A stretch of DNA of 64,000 nucleotides from Syntrophales bacterium (GCA_963666365.2 CAXXNF010000001.1:992001-1056000); one strand, 5' to 3'; shown: positions 35,807-43,176, counted from the stretch's first letter. Translations and numbers: made by a program. Notes: generated by a model from the letters alone, not told the origin.

Positions 35807-36017
35807 TCTCGCGCAGAGGCGCAGGGACGCTGAGGGCAGGACAGAAAAAAATACGAGAGCTTTGAAAATTCCCCTTTGGTTTCAATATTGTCATGCCGGA
35901 CGTGATCCGGCATCCAGTTGAAATATTGTCTGGATTCCGGGTCGCGCTTCGCGTGCCCGGAAAGACGAAGAGAAGAGTTAAGCTCTCAAATGTTTTTCTC
36001 TGCGTCTCTGCGCGAAA
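35807..36017. repeat. CGCAGAG-family inverted repeat (locus 2) enclosing a GTCATGCCGG palindromic element (35890-35966)
   Basis: TCTCGCGCAGAGGCGCAGGGACGCTGAG ... CTCTGCGTCTCTGCGCGAAA; inner GTCATGCCGGACGTGATCCGGCATCCAG...CTGGATTCCGGG...CCCGGAAAGAC. Confidence 0.8.
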
Positions 36018-36052
36018 AAAAATCTGCATTTTTTTAAAGGAGTATTCGCGCC

Positions 36053-37708
36053 ATACCTCGCATTTACGGATACACAACCGGCCTCAAAACGGCCGAGTTC
36101 AAATCCCTGGAACAGCTCTACCGGCGGCGCGTGCCCCCGGACCGCATCATCACGCAGGAGTATGCCCGCGCCCTTGTGGAACTCTCCCGTCGCATCGGTC
36201 GTCAGATCGGCGTGCTCATAAGCCGCCGGGGAGAAACCGGTTATGTCATCGTCGGCGATACCCGTCAGATCGTCATCCCCGATCTCACGGGTTTTCGGGC
36301 GGCGTCGACGCGGCTCAAGGGGCTGCGCCTCCTTCACACCCATCTGAAGGACGAACCGCTCAGCCGGGATGACCTGACCGATCTCGCCCTCCTCCGGCTC
36401 GACCTTGTGGCGGCCCTTACCATCGACCCGGAGGGACTGCCCGGTCCCATGCATATAGCCCATCTGATTCCGGAAAATCCCACCGGCAGCTACTGGCTGG
36501 TGCTGGATCCCTGCCGTCCCTCGGAGCTTTCCATCAACTTCGCGTCCTTTATTCAGGCCCTTGAAGGGGAGTTCGCCCGCACACAGAAGCTGCGAAAGGT
36601 GGAATCCAGGGACCGGGCGATTCTTATACGGGTGGAGACCGATCCCGCCGCCGAGGCGAAGGCATCCCTGGATGAGCTGAAGGAACTGGCCCGGTCCTCC
36701 GATGTGTCCGTTTTCGATGCGGTCATACAGTACCGCAGTCAGGTCGATCCGAAATTTCTCATGGGGAAGGGGAAGCTTTCCGATGTGGTGATCCGGGCGC
36801 TGCAGATGGGGGCGAACCTTCTCATTTTCGATCACGAGCTTACCCCCGCCCAGGCGCGATCCATCGCGGACTTCACCGACATGAAGGTAATCGACCGGAC
36901 CCAGCTCATTCTGGACATCTTTGCCCAGCGGGCCCTGTCCCGGGACGGCAAGATTCAGGTGGAACTGGCCCAGCTCAAGTATCTTCTTCCCCGCCTCGTG
37001 ACAAAAAACACGGCTCTTTCCCGCCTTACGGGAGGGATCGGCGGCCGGGGTCCCGGCGAGACGAAACTCGAAATCAATCGGCGACGGGTCTATGACCGCA
37101 TCAACCATCTTGAAAAAGAACTGGTCCGCATCAGAAGGGGGCGGGGCGAGCGGCGCGGGCGAAGAAAAAAAGAGGGGCTTCCCGTCATATCCATTATCGG
37201 CTACACCAATGCGGGAAAATCGACCCTGTTGAACGCGCTGACCGCAAGTACGGTCCTCGCGGAAGACCGTCTCTTCGCCACCCTCGATCCGAAGAGTGCA
37301 CGCCTGCGGTTCCCCCGCGACCGGTCGGCCATCATCACCGACACGGTGGGCTTTATACGCGCCCTTCCCAAAGAACTCATGGCCGCCTTCAGGGCAACCC
37401 TGGAGGAACTGCACGAGGCCGATCTTCTGCTCCATGTCGTCGACGCCTCCAATCCCGCCTTCGAAGATCAGATGGGCGCCGTGGAGATAATCCTCGAGGA
37501 TCTTTCGCTGCAGGCGAAACCCCGCATTACGGTGTTCAACAAGGAAGATCTCTGTGCGGACAGGGAGGCGCTTGCACATCTCTGCACACGGTATCGTGCA
37601 ATTTCACTTACAGCACGTGATGCAACCACCTTTTCCCCTCTGCTGGAAAAAATTGAAAGGGTGATTCTCAAATCGGAAAAGGGGTGGCGGGACCAAAATA
37701 ACTGTTGA
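36053..37708 (+). CDS. hflX: GTPase HflX, long form with N-terminal extension; probable ATA start
   Basis: [45 protein letters not shown]; first canonical start is GTG 36131. Confidence 0.9.
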
Positions 37709-37802
37709 CTTTTCGCATCTTTTTTCATAAAGGTAGGCCGATTTTACTATGAAAGGCGCCTTCGCAATGATGACGGATCAGGAGACAGAAGGTACACGGT
37801 CG

Positions 37803-37877
37803 ATGCTATCTCTTGCGGTATTATCCCTCTTGTGCCTCGCTCTTCCCGGGCGACATACCCGGGCCTCATCGGCGTAA
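37803..37877 (+). CDS. Putative Leu-rich attenuator leader peptide MLSLAVLSLLCLALPGRHTRASSA
   Basis: 7 Leu codons in codons 2-14; GAAGGT upstream; in-frame ATGs also at 37749, 37767, 37770. Confidence 0.7.
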   Translation: MLSLAVLSLLCLALPGRHTRASSA

Positions 37878-37944
37878 AGGAACGATTGTCACGGCACGCG
37901 CACACTCGATGAGGCCACGGATTGAATCCGTGGCCTTTTTTTTT
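37845..37944 (+). promoter_or_regulatory. Transcription attenuator (1:2 hairpin, 2:3 antiterminator, 3:4 terminator)
   Basis: CCCGGG/CCCGGG (37845-50/37858-63); GGCCTCATCG(37862-71)/CGATGAGGCC(37907-16); AGGCCACGGAT-TGA-ATCCGTGGCC plus T9 (37912-44). Confidence 0.8.
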
Positions 37945-37957
37945 AAAGGAGCAGCCC

Positions 37958-38521
37958 ATGTACGAAATCATATGGCACGGCCGGGGCGGCCAGGGAGTCG
38001 TCCTGGCTTCTGAAGTTCTCGCCGAAGCGGCATATTTTCAGGGGTTCAAGGGCGTCACCTCGGCGCCCACCTTCGGGCCCGAGCGAAGGGGCGCGCCGCT
38101 TGCGGCGTCGACGCGCATCGCCGACGAACCGCTGCGGACCTTCTCTCAGATCGAAGAGGCCGATATCTCCGTCGTGCTCGACGAATCCCTCTTCAAAGTG
38201 GTGGATATCTGGGGGGGGCTCAAAGAAGGGGGCATTATGGTGATCAATTCTTCCGCGCCCCCCGGCGAGCATTTTCTCGTTAAGGCCGTGACGGTTCTGT
38301 GGCTGGATGCCGCGGCCGTCGCCCGGGAACACCGGTTGACCGCCGGCGGGGCGCCCGTGGTCAACACCCCTCTTCTGGGGGCGCTGGCGCGCGGATGGGG
38401 ACTGGTCGATCTCAATAACATTGAAAAGGCACTCGGCATCAAAATGTCCAGTGCCGGCGCCTATGTCAATTTTCAGGCGGTGAAGACCGCCTATGAAAAA
38501 ACGGTGATTATACCAGTGTGA
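37958..38521 (+). CDS. 2-oxoacid:ferredoxin oxidoreductase gamma subunit
   Basis: WHGRGGQG, FGPERRGAP; AAGGAG SD. Confidence 0.92.
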   Translation: MYEIIWHGRGGQGVVLASEVLAEAAYFQGFKGVTSAPTFGPERRGAPLAASTRIADEPLRTFSQIEEADISVVLDESLFKVVDIWGGLKEGGIMVINSSAPPGEHFLVKAVTVLWLDAAAVAREHRLTAGGAPVVNTPLLGALARGWGLVDLNNIEKALGIKMSSAGAYVNFQAVKTAYEKTVIIPV

Positions 38522-38528
38522 GGATACT

Positions 38529-38822
38529 ATGGAACGACGAGATGAAAATATATCGGGCGTCTGCACACCCGCCGTGGGCGAGGCGGGAAAAACCGGCGAC
38601 TGGAGCGACGTACAGCCCGTGATAGACCACTCAAAATGCACCCCCGCCGTCAAGGGGAGGGCCTCCTGTTTTCTCTGCTGGCTCTACTGTCCCGAAGGGG
38701 TGGTTCGGATGACCATTCCCGTGGAGATCAATCTCGACTACTGCAAGGGGTGCGGGATCTGCGCCGAAGAATGTCCCCCCAATGCGATCACCATGGTCCG
38801 AAAGGAGGAAATCCATGAATGA
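38529..38822 (+). CDS. 2-oxoacid:ferredoxin oxidoreductase delta (ferredoxin) subunit
   Basis: KTGDW, C...CFLCWLYCP, CKGCGICAEECP. Confidence 0.92.
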   Translation: MERRDENISGVCTPAVGEAGKTGDWSDVQPVIDHSKCTPAVKGRASCFLCWLYCPEGVVRMTIPVEINLDYCKGCGICAEECPPNAITMVRKEEIHE

Positions 38823-40035
38823 CATCCGCATCATCACGGGAAACGAAGCGGCAGCCCAGGCAGTCCTGCTCTGCGAACCGAAGGTGGTGGCCGCCTATCC
38901 CATTACTCCTCAGACCAAAATTTCGGAACTCCTTTCCGGGTATGTCGAGGGGGGCGTGCTGAAGGCGGAGTATGTACGCGTGGAAAGCGAACATTCCGCC
39001 ATGACCGTTCTCATATCGGCGTCCACCGTTGGGGCCCGGGTCTTCACGGCGACAAGCTCCAACGGACTTCTCTACATGCACGAACAGCTTCACTGGGCCG
39101 CGGGGTCCCGTCTTCCCATCGTCATGTGCTGTGTAAACCGCGGCGTAGGCGCCCCCTGGTCGATCTTCAACGATCAGCAGGATTCCATGTCGCAGCGCGA
39201 CACGGGCTGGATTCAGATATACTGCAGGGACAATCAGGAAATCATCGACACCGTCATCCAGGCCTACCGGATCGCCGAGCAGGTCTATATTCCCACCATG
39301 GTCTGTTATGACGGATTCGTACTCTCCCATACGATGATGCCCGTGGAAATCCCCGACGCGGGACTGGTGAAAGGGTTCCTTCCCCCCTACCGGCCCCACA
39401 CCTTCCTCGACCCGGAACGCCCCCGGACGATCAATCCCGTCTTCTTCCCCTGGCAGCGGCGCAATGCCGAGGGGGTGCTCTGCGACGGCTATATGGAAAT
39501 GCGCTACAAGCTCCAGCACGATTTCGAACGGTCCAAAGGCGTGATCGAGGAGGTCAACAGGGAGTTTGCCGAACGGTTCGGACGGGATCACGGCGGTCTC
39601 CTCTGGGAATATAGAACCGACGACGCAGACATCCTCGTGGCCGGCATGGGATCGATCGCCCAGGAAGCAACGCTCGCCGTCGACGCCCTGCGGGCCGAGG
39701 GAATAAAAATCGGCGTCGTGGGGATTCGCACCTTCAGGCCCTTCCCCCGCGAAAAGGTGGTCGAAGCCTTCAGGGGGGCCCGCGTCATCATCGTGTTTCA
39801 GAAGGCAATAAGCTACGGCTATGAGGGGGGCCTCACGTCCGAATTGAAAGCGGCGCTTTACGGGACGGGAATCACGGCGCCGGTGCACGATTATGTCGCC
39901 GGCCTGGGAGGACGGGATGTAAAAACACGGGAACTGGTGGAAGCGATCAGAACCACCCTTGATGCCGTCGCACGGGGAGAACGGCACAACAAAACAACCT
40001 GGCTCAACTGTTATACGGGTGACACTCATGCATGA
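38815..40035 (+). CDS. 2-oxoacid:ferredoxin oxidoreductase alpha subunit
   Basis: GNEA, YPITPQT, ESEHSA, TATSSNGL, FRPFP. Confidence 0.93.
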   Translation: MNDIRIITGNEAAAQAVLLCEPKVVAAYPITPQTKISELLSGYVEGGVLKAEYVRVESEHSAMTVLISASTVGARVFTATSSNGLLYMHEQLHWAAGSRLPIVMCCVNRGVGAPWSIFNDQQDSMSQRDTGWIQIYCRDNQEIIDTVIQAYRIAEQVYIPTMVCYDGFVLSHTMMPVEIPDAGLVKGFLPPYRPHTFLDPERPRTINPVFFPWQRRNAEGVLCDGYMEMRYKLQHDFERSKGVIEEVNREFAERFGRDHGGLLWEYRTDDADILVAGMGSIAQEATLAVDALRAEGIKIGVVGIRTFRPFPREKVVEAFRGARVIIVFQKAISYGYEGGLTSELKAALYGTGITAPVHDYVAGLGGRDVKTRELVEAIRTTLDAVARGERHNKTTWLNCYTGDTHA

Positions 40036-40927
40036 GAATTTATTTAAACTACATGAAAAAGAATACATTCTGCCCGGCAGCCGCGCCTGTCAGGGATGCG
40101 GGCTTTCTCTGGCCTACCGCTACATTCTGAAAGCGCTCCGCGAAAACACCATTGTGGCAATCCCTCCGAGCTGTCTCTGCGTGCTTCACGGCCTCTACCC
40201 GAATACCTCGGTCATCGTGCCGGCGCTCAATATCACCTTCGCCGGGAACGCCGCCTCGGCATCGGGGATCGTGGCGGCGCTGACCGCGCTGAACAGGCCC
40301 GACATCACCGTGCTCGCCCTTTCGGGGGACGGCGGCACCTATGACATCGGCATCCAGTCCCTGAGCGGCGCCGCCGAACGGAACACCGATTTCATATTCG
40401 CCTGCTATGACAATGAAGCCTACATGAATACGGGGACACAGCGCTCCGGCGCCACCCCGCTGGGCGCCGTCACCACCACCACGCCCCTCCTGACAAAACA
40501 GGATCACAAAAAAGATTTCATCAAGATCATGGAGGCCCACAATATTCCCTACATTGCCACAGTTTCACCCGCTTATCCTCAGGATCTTTATGAAAAATTC
40601 GTAAAGGCGAAGCGCATCAAGGGTACGCGCTACATTCAGATCGACACCCCCTGTCCTCCCGGATGGGGCTACCCGACGAAAGACACCGTGAAAATAGGGA
40701 AACTTGCCGTGGAAACGGGTATGTTTCCGCTGATTGAAATCGAAGACGGCAAACTGCGTTTCACCGGCAGAAGCCATACCCTCACCACAAAGGGGAAACG
40801 CACCCCCATCATTCATTACGTGGAACGGCAGACGCGCTTTAAAAAGATGAGTATCGAACAGCTCAATCAGCTGCAGAGCTGGGTGGACAAACGCTGGAAC
40901 GACTTTATGAGGCAGGCGGAACTCTAA
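40028..40927 (+). CDS. 2-oxoacid:ferredoxin oxidoreductase beta subunit
   Basis: ACQGCG, TPP motif GDGG...DNEAYMNTG, PCP. Confidence 0.93.
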   Translation: MHENLFKLHEKEYILPGSRACQGCGLSLAYRYILKALRENTIVAIPPSCLCVLHGLYPNTSVIVPALNITFAGNAASASGIVAALTALNRPDITVLALSGDGGTYDIGIQSLSGAAERNTDFIFACYDNEAYMNTGTQRSGATPLGAVTTTTPLLTKQDHKKDFIKIMEAHNIPYIATVSPAYPQDLYEKFVKAKRIKGTRYIQIDTPCPPGWGYPTKDTVKIGKLAVETGMFPLIEIEDGKLRFTGRSHTLTTKGKRTPIIHYVERQTRFKKMSIEQLNQLQSWVDKRWNDFMRQAEL

Positions 40928-42222
40928 GGGAGCAGGGAGGCGATGAGATCGGCATAGCGCGCCGCTGCTCCTCTGTTGTTCTGCACAATCTCTTTTCCGG
41001 CCTCGCCGCGCCGGAGACGCTGTTCCGGATTGTTCAGCATATCCGCGATTCCTGCGGCAAGTTCTTCTTCTCCGGTGACGGTCACGCCGGCGCCGACGGA
41101 ACAGAGCTGATCGCGTTCGTCCATGAAATCATCCATATGGGGGCCGAAAAAGACAACCTTCCCCCAGGCGGCCGCCTCGAGGACATTCTGCCCTCCCCGC
41201 GGCACGAGACTTCCCCCGCAAAACACCACATGGGCGCATCCGTAGAGCGTAAAAAGCACCCCCATGGCATCGACAAGCACCACAGGCCGGTTTCCCCGCG
41301 GCACTCCTTTTACGATTTCACTATAGACGATTACATCACGATCGAACCCTTCCGCCTCAAGGAGAGTGCGAATCTCGCCGGATCTCTCTATATGCCGCGG
41401 CACAAGTACAAGCACCACATCGGGGAATTGCCGGCGCAGCTTCTTAAATGCCGCGATGACCGTCTTTTCCTCACCCCCATGGGTGCTGCCGGCGACAAAG
41501 ACAGGGGTGTGCACGGACAGGGACAGCCGGCCGGCCATTGCGCCGGCGCGGGCAGGATCGGCCTCTGCGGCAAGGCTGTCGAACTTGGCATTTCCCATCA
41601 CAAACAGGCGAGAGGAATCCACTCCCATCGATATGAGCCTTTCCTCGTCAATCCTGGAAATGACGCCCGCCGCATCGATCATTTTCAGCACCCCCTGCCA
41701 GAAAAATCTCGTCGCCCGATATTTTTTAAAGGACCGTGGAGAAATACGGCCGTTCACCATCACCACCCTGACGGCGCGCCTTCGGCAGGCGCGAATGAAA
41801 TTGGGCCAGATCTCCGTCTCCACGGGGACAAATACATCGGGGGCGACGCCATCCAGCACCTTATTTATTACGTGTGGAATATCAAGGGGATAATAGAGAT
41901 GGCTCGTCGCATGGGGCACAAGCCGGACCGCCGCATCCTGCCCCGTTTCGGTGCTCGTCGAAAGGACGATGCACCCCTCGGGATAGCGTACACGAAGCGC
42001 TTCGACGATCGGCGCCGCCGCCGTGACTTCACCGACCGACACGGCATGCACCCATATGCGGGGGGTTCCCTTCATAACGCTGAAGAGTTCCGGCGGATTG
42101 ACGCCGAACTTCGGCCCCATGCTCTTCCTGTACTTGCCGGTCACACAGACCCGCCAGGCGTAGTAGGGCGCCAGAAAAAGGGCGGCCAGGCCCAGCAGCA
42201 CATTGTAGAGGAAAAATTTCAT
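40924..42222 (-). CDS. waaA: 3-deoxy-D-manno-octulosonic acid transferase
   Basis: WVHAVSVGE, ETEIWPN, NGRIS, GSTH, PRH, GGQN.LE. Confidence 0.93.
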   Translation of the reverse strand: MKFFLYNVLLGLAALFLAPYYAWRVCVTGKYRKSMGPKFGVNPPELFSVMKGTPRIWVHAVSVGEVTAAAPIVEALRVRYPEGCIVLSTSTETGQDAAVRLVPHATSHLYYPLDIPHVINKVLDGVAPDVFVPVETEIWPNFIRACRRRAVRVVMVNGRISPRSFKKYRATRFFWQGVLKMIDAAGVISRIDEERLISMGVDSSRLFVMGNAKFDSLAAEADPARAGAMAGRLSLSVHTPVFVAGSTHGGEEKTVIAAFKKLRRQFPDVVLVLVPRHIERSGEIRTLLEAEGFDRDVIVYSEIVKGVPRGNRPVVLVDAMGVLFTLYGCAHVVFCGGSLVPRGGQNVLEAAAWGKVVFFGPHMDDFMDERDQLCSVGAGVTVTGEEELAAGIADMLNNPEQRLRRGEAGKEIVQNNRGAAARYADLIASLLP

Positions 42223-42432
42223 ACAGTACCTTCGAGGAACACTTGCTCCTCCATATCACGACAGCATCATCGGCTGCAACTGTTACCATCGGGGGTCGTC
42301 ACGGTTCAATGCACAATGCCTGTGTTCTTAACCTCTATGCCGCTGCATAATTATCACTGTACACACACGAAAAGATTGACAGGGGAAAATGCGGTATAGT
42401 AAAGGGAGATATAACCAAGGAGAAAAAAAACA

Positions 42433-43176
42433 ATGAAGCACAGAAAATATAACAGGTGCTGCATTGCAGCGGTGTTGTGTGTCGCATTTCTGGTCGCTGC
42501 CGGCTGCACACGGTATGAACGCACGGTTGTCCCCTTCAAGATGCCCACGGCCTACCCCAACGCAACGGCCGTGGCAGGCGCTGTAGTGGCCGCCGAAGCC
42601 TTTGCCGATTCCGAAAAGGCCTCCCGGGCATTCGGGTTCGACATTATGGGGGCGGGAGTCATGCCTGTGCAGGTGGTATTTGACAATCAGGGCGCCCATC
42701 CTCTGGAAGTCATTCCTTCAAAGACATTTCTTGTCGATGCGTCCAGCAATCTGTGGCCCATCCTCGATGAGGGACTCGCCTACGATCGGATTGCCAAAAA
42801 AACGGATTTTGGAGAGGTCGCGCCCAAAGCGGCAAAGCCCGCGCTTTTGGGCGGCGCGGCAGGCGCGCTCATCGGCGCCGCCATCGGCATCGTCACGGGG
42901 ACCAATGTGGGAGAAGCAGCGGGCAAAGGCGCCGCCGTGGGCGCGGCGGCCGGCGCAACGGCAGGGGGTCTTTCGGGGGTCAATGATCAGGAGGTGCGCC
43001 GCCAGATCGGCGACGATCTCCATACCAGGACACTGGAGCAGAAACCCATACCGGCGAAGGAGATCGCCCATGGATTTATCTTCTTTCCCGCCGAGGCCTC
43101 CGGTGCAAAGGAGCTCCGTTTGAGCATCCGGGAAATTGACACGGGCGTTACCCATACCCTCATATTACCGTTTTAA
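42433..43176 (+). CDS. Glycine-zipper lipoprotein
   Basis: Lipobox AAGC; GGAAGALIGAAIG...GAAVGAAAG zipper. Confidence 0.75.
   Translation: MKHRKYNRCCIAAVLCVAFLVAAGCTRYERTVVPFKMPTAYPNATAVAGAVVAAEAFADSEKASRAFGFDIMGAGVMPVQVVFDNQGAHPLEVIPSKTFLVDASSNLWPILDEGLAYDRIAKKTDFGEVAPKAAKPALLGGAAGALIGAAIGIVTGTNVGEAAGKGAAVGAAAGATAGGLSGVNDQEVRRQIGDDLHTRTLEQKPIPAKEIAHGFIFFPAEASGAKELRLSIREIDTGVTHTLILPF

Follow-up and report, generated by a model that had tools for sequence, protein, structure and literature searches.

A 64,000-nt stretch of the Syntrophales bacterium genome GCA_963666365.2 (CAXXNF010000001.1:992001-1056000) carries an operon for the gamma, delta, alpha and beta subunits of a 2-oxoacid:ferredoxin oxidoreductase (OFOR). 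This whole stretch is referred to as the window, all positions given without a contig name are positions within it, and the source genome is referred to as G000. Between an HflX-type GTPase open reading frame (ORF), which is the upstream neighbour and ends at 37708, and the gamma gene lies a leader with a short leucine-rich ORF, several overlapping RNA pairings and an intrinsic terminator (Table 1). The initial annotation of the locus had read this leader as a leucine-sensing ribosome attenuator and the enzyme as one that works anabolically. Its gene order, gamma-delta-alpha-beta, was borne out by Pfam matches for all four products (PF01558; Fer4; PF01855+PF17147; PF02775). Each sequence-level prediction of the attenuator reading that could be tested, namely the ORF, its leucine codons, the antiterminator, the ribosome geometry and the lack of room for a further promoter, came out as expected. 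We put the probability at roughly 0.85 that the element is a ribosome-mediated leader-peptide transcription attenuator sensing leucyl-tRNA supply.

Table 1. Features of the leader and of the oxidoreductase operon, in window positions.
Feature	Position	Strand	Remarks
Promoter-like site	37705..37733	+	-35 TTGACT 37705-10, 17-nt spacer, -10-like TAAAGG 37728-33; just past GTPase stop
Shine-Dalgarno-like GAAAGG of leader ORF	37751..37756	+	orthologues: GAAAGGG 6-10 nt before leader ATG
Leader-peptide ORF (probable start)	37767..37877	+	MMTDQETEGTRSMLSLAVLSLLCLALPGRHTRASSA, 36 aa; stop TAA 37875-77; alternative in-frame starts 37749, 37770, 37803
Regulatory Leu codons	37806..37844	+	CTA 37806, CTT 37812, TTA 37821, CTC 37827, TTG 37830, CTC 37836, CTT 37842
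Hairpin 1	37845..37863	+	CCCGGG 37845-50, 7-nt loop, CCCGGG 37858-63; 6 bp; 3' arm overlaps antiterminator strand
Region 2, antiterminator 5' strand	37858..37876	+	ends at leader stop codon
Region 3, antiterminator 3' strand	37901..37921	+	overlaps 11 nt of terminator 5' arm
Intrinsic terminator	37911..37944	+	stem 37911-37, 12 pairs, 7 G-C, loop TGA; T9 at 37936-44
Gap between terminator and gamma	37945..37957	+	13 nt; holds gamma Shine-Dalgarno AAAGGAG 37945-51; gamma ATG 37958
OFOR gamma subunit	37958..38521	+	187 aa; PF01558; TIGR02175 166 bits vs cut-off 81
OFOR delta subunit	38529..38822	+	97 aa; 2x[4Fe-4S] ferredoxin-like; Fer4 families; TIGR02179 85 bits vs cut-off 60
OFOR alpha subunit	38782..40035	+	PF01855+PF17147; ORF bounds taken from first ATG
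OFOR beta subunit, thiamine pyrophosphate (TPP)-binding	39959..40927	+	PF02775; ORF bounds taken from first TTG

Read from the ATG at 37803-05 to the TAA at 37875-77, the leader ORF gives MLSLAVLSLLCLALPGRHTRASSA. Leucine stands at codons 2, 4, 7, 9, 10, 12 and 14 counted from this ATG, CTG is absent, and the single valine is codon 6 (GTA). The initial annotation had described the ORF at 37803-37877 in just these terms, with seven leucines in codons 2-14, and was accurate to the base. Its frame and stop codon stand; its start has probably to be moved upstream. The homologous start is probably the ATG at 37767 or 37770, because these positions resemble the orthologues, in which GAAAGG is followed after about 10 nt by ATG ACN GAT. 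The frame is open from 37749, and every candidate start lies 5' of all seven leucine codons. G000 has five tRNA-Leu isoacceptors, with one gene for each. Upstream of the ORF we infer a promoter at 37705-33; TTGAC(T/A) is found at the same place in the orthologous loci of G001, G019, G022, G004, G008 and G012.

The terminator (37911-37937) was listed first among 16 sites in a scan of 36000-42500 and has the most pairs; shuffled sequences gave a mean of 7.2 sites. It had been annotated as an 11-bp stem within 37912-44. The hairpin, its run of nine T and its overlap with the antiterminator were confirmed, and the scan gave 12 pairs from 37911 instead. The proposed perfect 10-bp antiterminator is also present at the bases given for it, with GGCCTCATCG (37862-71) able to pair with CGATGAGGCC (37907-16); the best alternative pairing is not confined to these arms and extends to 37858-76/37901-21. 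It includes the CGG of the terminator 5' arm, and it has a free energy of -27.5 kcal/mol (z -4.6); none of 200 shuffles matched it. When the nascent RNA was folded up to the terminator 5' arm, the stretch after hairpin 1 paired with that arm. The 13 nt between the terminator and gamma leave no room for a promoter behind the terminator.

To place the ribosome on these structures, we assumed a footprint from -15 to +12 around the A site. In the source-genome leader, 94% of the paired bases of region 2 lie under a ribosome that has reached the stop codon, and 0% under one at any of the seven leucine codons. This agrees with the earlier proposal that the stop codon is placed to favour termination and that a stall at leucine frees the antiterminator. 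In the same calculation on 75 leaders from the searches described below, the stop-codon ribosome hid a median of 71% of the antiterminator strand, and 50% or more of it in 53 leaders. With a leucine codon in the A site, coverage was at most 25% in 717 of 738 cases.

When the DNA of 41 relatives was searched, seven genomes proved to carry the 3' two-thirds of the leader, always before the gamma orthologue. A covariance model (R1) built from those seven leader sequences matched 32 of the family's 38 genomes, with matches in all 10 genera. Among the 31 best matches examined in the family, 29 stand 13-46 nt before the gamma orthologue (54-79% identity) and two before leuA; the match in the 32nd genome is not a leader. 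Order-wide, the model matched 114 of 151 genomes, in 23 of 24 families. Gamma orthologues, present in 97 genomes, were separated from paralogues by E value (at most 7e-53 versus at least 7e-38), and for 73 of these 97 the model matches 12-270 nt upstream on the same strand. Matches adjoining neither gamma nor leuA numbered 21, and they revealed no further type of target: four are true leaders that lie at the ends of contigs, where the assembly holds no following gene, one stands before a leuA fragment, 15 have no leucine-rich frame and are plain terminators, and one further match is not a leader.

The initial annotation had proposed to look upstream of orthologous operons for a leucine-rich ORF and covarying stems. 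Both were found, the ORF being kept in frame and the terminator covarying. In the family alignment, 92.5% of the terminator cells are paired and 8 of its 13 pairs have changed on both sides; the corresponding paired fraction for hairpin 1 is 59%. When the antiterminator duplex of the 75 leaders was compared with 200 shuffles of each, 65 were significant at p of 0.05 or less (median z -2.95), and a median of 13 nt of the terminator 5' arm is engaged by the duplex. The antiterminator sequences differ between lineages, and most other families pair CGCCCGUCGUUUUUAGGA with UCCUAAAGGCCAUGGGU. It is the conservation of the element, not this one sequence, that raises the attenuator above chance. In most Syntrophales families, region 2 (CGCCCGUCGUUUUUAGGA) copies the terminator 3' arm plus its U-tail. 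As a consequence of this mimicry, the peptide has a conserved end, SPVVFR, that is fixed by the RNA constraint.

The leader is also conserved as a series of codons. In every one of the 30 family matches the leader has an in-frame ORF (28 with ATG, two with GTG), which is preceded by GAAAGG(G); a typical family peptide is MTGFSAKGLLNLSSLLSLALSRGKYPRPVISVV. When the loci of the family, the order and the named records were pooled, 87 unique full-length matches resulted. Of these, 72 precede a gamma-like N-terminus, and an ATG-started ORF in the same frame is found in 66 of the 72. Leucine makes up 22.8% of the residues of the 66 leaders, versus 9.2% in the adjacent gamma genes. Neither isoleucine (3.2 versus 7.2%) nor valine (7.0 versus 8.3%) is enriched. 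The median leader has eight leucines in 36 residues, with six in its densest ten codons, and some leaders have runs such as LLRLALLLLLL. Leucine codon choice differs as well: TTG accounts for 29% in leaders versus 6% in gamma genes, and CTG for 16% versus 36%. Four aligned positions are leucine in 56, 57, 64 and 66 of the 66 leaders, written with 6, 5, 3 and 4 different codons, respectively. Leucine is thus kept while its synonymous codons vary, as would be expected if the residue or its tRNA matters and not if the motif acts as RNA only.

From these sequence features we infer that translation and stalling drive the switch. Transcription would begin just past the GTPase gene, and ribosomes would translate the leader ORF as RNA polymerase proceeds. 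When leucyl-tRNA is plentiful, the ribosome would reach the stop codon at 37875 and cover region 2, so that region 3 would form the terminator and transcription would stop 13 nt before the operon. When leucyl-tRNA is scarce, the ribosome would stall at the seven leucine codons and leave region 2 bare; region 2 would then pair with region 3 and take the terminator 5' arm, and the polymerase would enter gamma-delta-alpha-beta.

Several results weigh against this reading. The whole 221-nt leader folds no better than its shuffles (z -1.26). Equilibrium partition-function folding with ribosome masks for the free, leucine-stalled and stop-codon states kept the terminator in every state, and the switch therefore has to be kinetic. 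A consensus promoter scan called no site in this region, so that the promoter is weak by consensus. Under strict filters, 24 of the 97 gamma orthologues and 45 of the 95 leuA genes have no model match upstream; of those 24 gamma orthologues, at least two begin less than 140 nt from the end of a contig. The leaders of one genus hold only 2-5 leucines when read from a short ATG, and an example from this genus has only two invariant codons, CTC and CTT. The CCCGGG/CCCGGG hairpin at 37845-63 is present as annotated, and its supposed conserved role as a 1:2 protector did no better than chance: across the 75 leaders, occupancy of region 2 by upstream bases was 0.37, versus 0.37 in shuffles.

The covariance model had a second match in G000, on the minus strand at C1:68087-68216, 41 nt before leuA (TIGR00973, 717 bits versus a cut-off of 598.7). 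At this locus (C1:65587-68616), leuA is followed by leuC and leuD, with cimA just upstream. The leuA leader resembles the OFOR leader in its core (CTTAGCCTCGCTCTTACC), its leucine-rich ORF, its kind of terminator (GGCCATGGG...) and its polarity; it differs in the strength of the model match (31 versus 106 bits) and in the gene behind it, which encodes 2-isopropylmalate synthase. Nine more genomes of the family have a leader before leuA, and order-wide a model match lies 16-330 nt upstream of 50 of 95 leuA genes. A check for leuABCD, suggested by the initial annotation, thus gave a positive answer: leuA, leuB, leuC and leuD are all present in G000, and leuA has a paralogous leader.

Further leaders of the same class in G000 came from a whole-genome scan and from the regions G000:C1:56001-71000, G000:C2:2024001-2036000 and G000:C2:516226-516325. 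An isoleucine-run leader stands before the citramalate synthase gene cimA (TIGR00977, 729 bits), a valine-run leader (MTGRFGVVLSSVYVLVVVLTGTAARSR) before one acetolactate synthase (an ilvB-ilvN pair), an isoleucine-run leader before a second acetolactate synthase set (ilvB-ilvN-ilvC-ilvD), and a leader with a WWW run and two hairpins before a trpB-like gene. These sister leaders indicate that classical attenuation is the usual control of amino-acid synthesis in this organism. In another genome, a leader with three consecutive tryptophan codons (MIRDRFLTGWWWRFPHSGEGSVHCLITG) and a terminator (G008:C26:15085-18113, at 401-529 of the locus) stands 35 nt before a gene resembling that of the indolepyruvate:ferredoxin oxidoreductase alpha subunit (TIGR03336, 643.1 versus 650.9). 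It looks like a second amino-acid attenuator on a 2-oxoacid:ferredoxin oxidoreductase. No leaders were found before the two genes of this kind (IOR-like) in G000.

Two other accounts of the leader were considered. It might be a sensor that works without a ribosome, such as a riboswitch, a T-box-like tRNA binder or a protein-binding RNA, with the ORF as a by-product. The core CTCGCTCTT and region 2 are indeed conserved as nucleotides with little synonymous change, SPVVFR would then merely translate an RNA strand that mimics the terminator 3' arm, and a leucine T-box on leuA has been reported in Geobacter (PMC2700814). However, an Rfam scan of 37300-38300 up to E 10 gave a best score of 18.2 bits versus a gathering threshold of 44.2; it returned six sub-threshold, unrelated families and neither Leu_leader (RF00512) nor a T-box. 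The frame, start codon and Shine-Dalgarno sequence are preserved in all 30 family matches, leucine is retained at four positions through 3-6 synonymous codons, and 5' of the core the nucleotides vary but leucine stays. The sister leaders of G000, with isoleucine, valine or tryptophan runs before the matching pathways, also speak against such a sensor, which we regard as very improbable. Still more improbable is that the T9 hairpin terminates the HflX-type GTPase gene, or a small RNA or small protein gene, and that the operon is transcribed separately. The GTPase gene has no other strong terminator, and a terminated leader transcript could have a role of its own. However, the 13 nt between the T-run and the ATG are filled by the Shine-Dalgarno sequence, which means that polymerase has to pass the terminator to reach the operon; the element accompanies gamma (in 23 of 24 families) and leuA, not one upstream gene; and the hydrophobic stretch of the leader, judged from the peptides, is too short for a membrane helix.

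The closest known system is leuL, the leader-peptide attenuator of the enterobacterial leuABCD operon (Rfam Leu_leader, RF00512). Both have a short leader ORF with a leucine cluster biased to rarer codons, an antiterminator opposed to an intrinsic terminator just before the first structural gene, and a stop codon sited so that a ribosome that does not stall blocks the antiterminator. The Syntrophales element differs in that it has no sequence or structure match to RF00512 and belongs to another phylum. In G000, its leucine codons are spread over about 14 codons and are not four in a row, a 1:2 protector hairpin is unsupported, and its targets include a ferredoxin-dependent oxidoreductase besides leuA. 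By class, the element is a leader-peptide attenuator, judged by these sequence features, and not a member of the Rfam Leu_leader family.

Enzymes of the POR/VOR family are usually annotated as pyruvate:ferredoxin oxidoreductase. The four subunits and their domains are those of the archaeal and bacterial porGDAB/vorGDAB enzymes; the equivalog cut-offs are missed here. The beta subunit scored 361.3 bits with PRK11864 (3-methyl-2-oxobutanoate dehydrogenase beta; cut-off 405) and 349.1 with PorB (cut-off 405), and the VOR model PRK09623 scored 75.8 versus 166. The closest solved chain to alpha is 9bt4_B, the alpha chain of a four-subunit PFOR (E 4.9e-94). The operon thus encodes a four-subunit 2-oxoacid:ferredoxin oxidoreductase of the POR/VOR family, whose sequence does not single out one substrate. 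A second POR/VOR-type operon in G000 (40% identity) has neither the leader nor the terminator, and can serve general pyruvate metabolism.

The distribution of leuA bears on the role of the enzyme. Among the 151 genomes, 48 have both OFOR and leuA, 49 have OFOR only, 46 leuA only and 8 neither; among the 73 genomes at least 98% complete, the numbers are 21, 27, 24 and 1, respectively. The Fisher odds ratio is 0.17 (p 1e-5, uncorrected for phylogeny). In five complete OFOR-only genomes, none had a LeuA above the cut-off; the best score was about 245 bits, as for the CimA of G000. Four of these leuA-less genomes, G027, G079, G033 and G055, each have a cimA-like gene, and in 4 of 4 it is preceded by an isoleucine-run leader (e.g. 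MKSIIGIIIPIIIDIIGIRPGGVGG) and a terminator, which indicates that the cimA-like gene is not a hidden LeuA. As a marker of isovaleryl-CoA metabolism, HMG-CoA lyase was found (NF004283, over cut-off) in 75 of 97 OFOR genomes versus 15 of 54 others, and in 41 of 49 OFOR-only versus 10 of 46 leuA-only genomes, both uncorrected for phylogeny. No HMG-CoA lyase over the cut-off was found in G000.

These three lines of evidence, the complementarity of leuA and OFOR, the isoleucine leader on the cimA-like gene and the co-occurrence with HMG-CoA lyase, lead us to favour, by a small balance, an enzyme that works anabolically under leucine limitation as a 2-oxoisocaproate synthase. Isovaleryl-CoA would be reductively carboxylated to 2-oxoisocaproate, and a branched-chain aminotransferase would convert the product to leucine, a route independent of LeuA. 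Reductive carboxylation of isovaleryl-CoA serves leucine synthesis in rumen bacteria. The anabolic isovaleryl-CoA enzyme of the initial annotation has gained independent comparative support and falls short of proof. A catabolic role would call for the reverse polarity, and so fits neither the ribosome geometry nor the kinship to the leuA leader. The best branched-chain aminotransferase candidate of G000, an ilvE-like gene (C1:1063810-1064700, minus strand; TIGR01122, 238.5 versus 245.55), lies about 8 kb past the end of the window and is unlinked to the operon.

The anabolic 2-oxoisocaproate reading has to contend with several observations. None of the equivalog models (POR, VOR, phenylglyoxylate, oxalate) reaches its cut-off, and alpha scores 456.5 bits with PorA_Arch, its top-scoring profile (cut-off 550), and 375.7 with the VorA-type PRK08366 (cut-off 646). 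The co-occurrence counts ignore phylogeny, several families being uniform and six mixed. No CoA ligase or aminotransferase linked to the OFOR operon was found. G000 itself has leuA, leuB, leuC and leuD, and there OFOR would therefore be an extra route to leucine, not needed for it. With a real attenuator, the enzyme could instead supply LeuABCD with precursor when leucine is short, either as a pyruvate synthase or as a VOR-type enzyme for 2-oxoisovalerate. The top score of alpha with the archaeal PorA profile and the PFOR as nearest solved chain are in line with this, and the leu genes of G000 make such a supply possible there. However, a shared precursor should answer to valine and isoleucine too, and the leaders are depleted in their codons. 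In the 49 of 151 genomes with OFOR but without leuA, pyruvate or 2-oxoisovalerate could not reach leucine, and in G000 the leaderless second operon can be the general pyruvate enzyme. We therefore consider precursor supply to be somewhat unlikely.

If the enzyme is a 2-oxoisocaproate synthase, OFOR may be the sole leucine route in the leuA-less genomes, a proposal from gene content that we make tentatively. It is likewise conceivable, with the balance somewhat against it, that a dedicated 2-oxoisocaproate synthase, using isovaleryl-CoA, CO2 and reduced ferredoxin, is the only leucine-committed step in about one third of Syntrophales (49 of 151). Because OFOR co-occurs with HMG-CoA lyase, isovalerate degradation might even be reversed, with isovaleryl-CoA and leucine made de novo from acetyl-CoA in syntrophs that live near equilibrium. 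A genome paper on a Syntrophus symbiont predicts that isovalerate supports its growth and refers to syntrophs that degrade isovalerate (PMC10579272).

The flanks of the operon gave a few further observations. The HflX-type GTPase ORF (36131-37708) has 525 residues from its first GTG, and its first Pfam domain begins only at residue 178; either its true start is later or it has an unexplained N-terminal extension. Behind the operon, a Kdo-transferase gene (PF04413; 40924-42222, minus strand) is convergent with it, and the end of its ORF overlaps the beta stop by 4 nt, which indicates that the operon ends with beta. No widely shared gene follows beta in the relatives, a co-directional ORF of at least 70 residues within 250 nt being present at 23 of 55 loci. 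Six loci have in common an SDR-like N-terminus after beta, judged by eye only.

We know of no four-subunit POR/VOR enzyme under an amino-acid attenuator, and in the literature that we searched no amino-acid attenuator was described on this enzyme family. The element is a known mechanism on an unusual target. The nearest printed precedent found is in Table 2 of the Geobacter metallireducens genome paper, which lists a conserved 5' sequence 'tryptophan (iorAB-paaK)' with no mechanism given there (PMC2700814). In that entry, as here, a 2-oxoacid:ferredoxin oxidoreductase operon with a conserved 5' element is treated as amino-acid biosynthetic. It differs in that the table gives no leader peptide, the enzyme is an indolepyruvate enzyme, and the amino acid and the order are others.

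The specificity of this enzyme family cannot be read from sequence, and here the attenuator labels the role of the genes: an operon that is on when leucine is short has a physiological role and a substrate guess that can be tested. The leader family is absent from Rfam, and the finding indicates that classical attenuation is the standard control of amino-acid synthesis in Syntrophales. Together, the absence of leuA from many genomes with the leucine-led operon, the isoleucine-led cimA in those genomes and the co-occurring HMG-CoA lyase suggest leucine synthesis from isovaleryl-CoA in many syntrophic fatty-acid degraders. If this is true, isopropylmalate would be bypassed, and predictions of auxotrophy and cross-feeding for anaerobic digesters and sediments would change.

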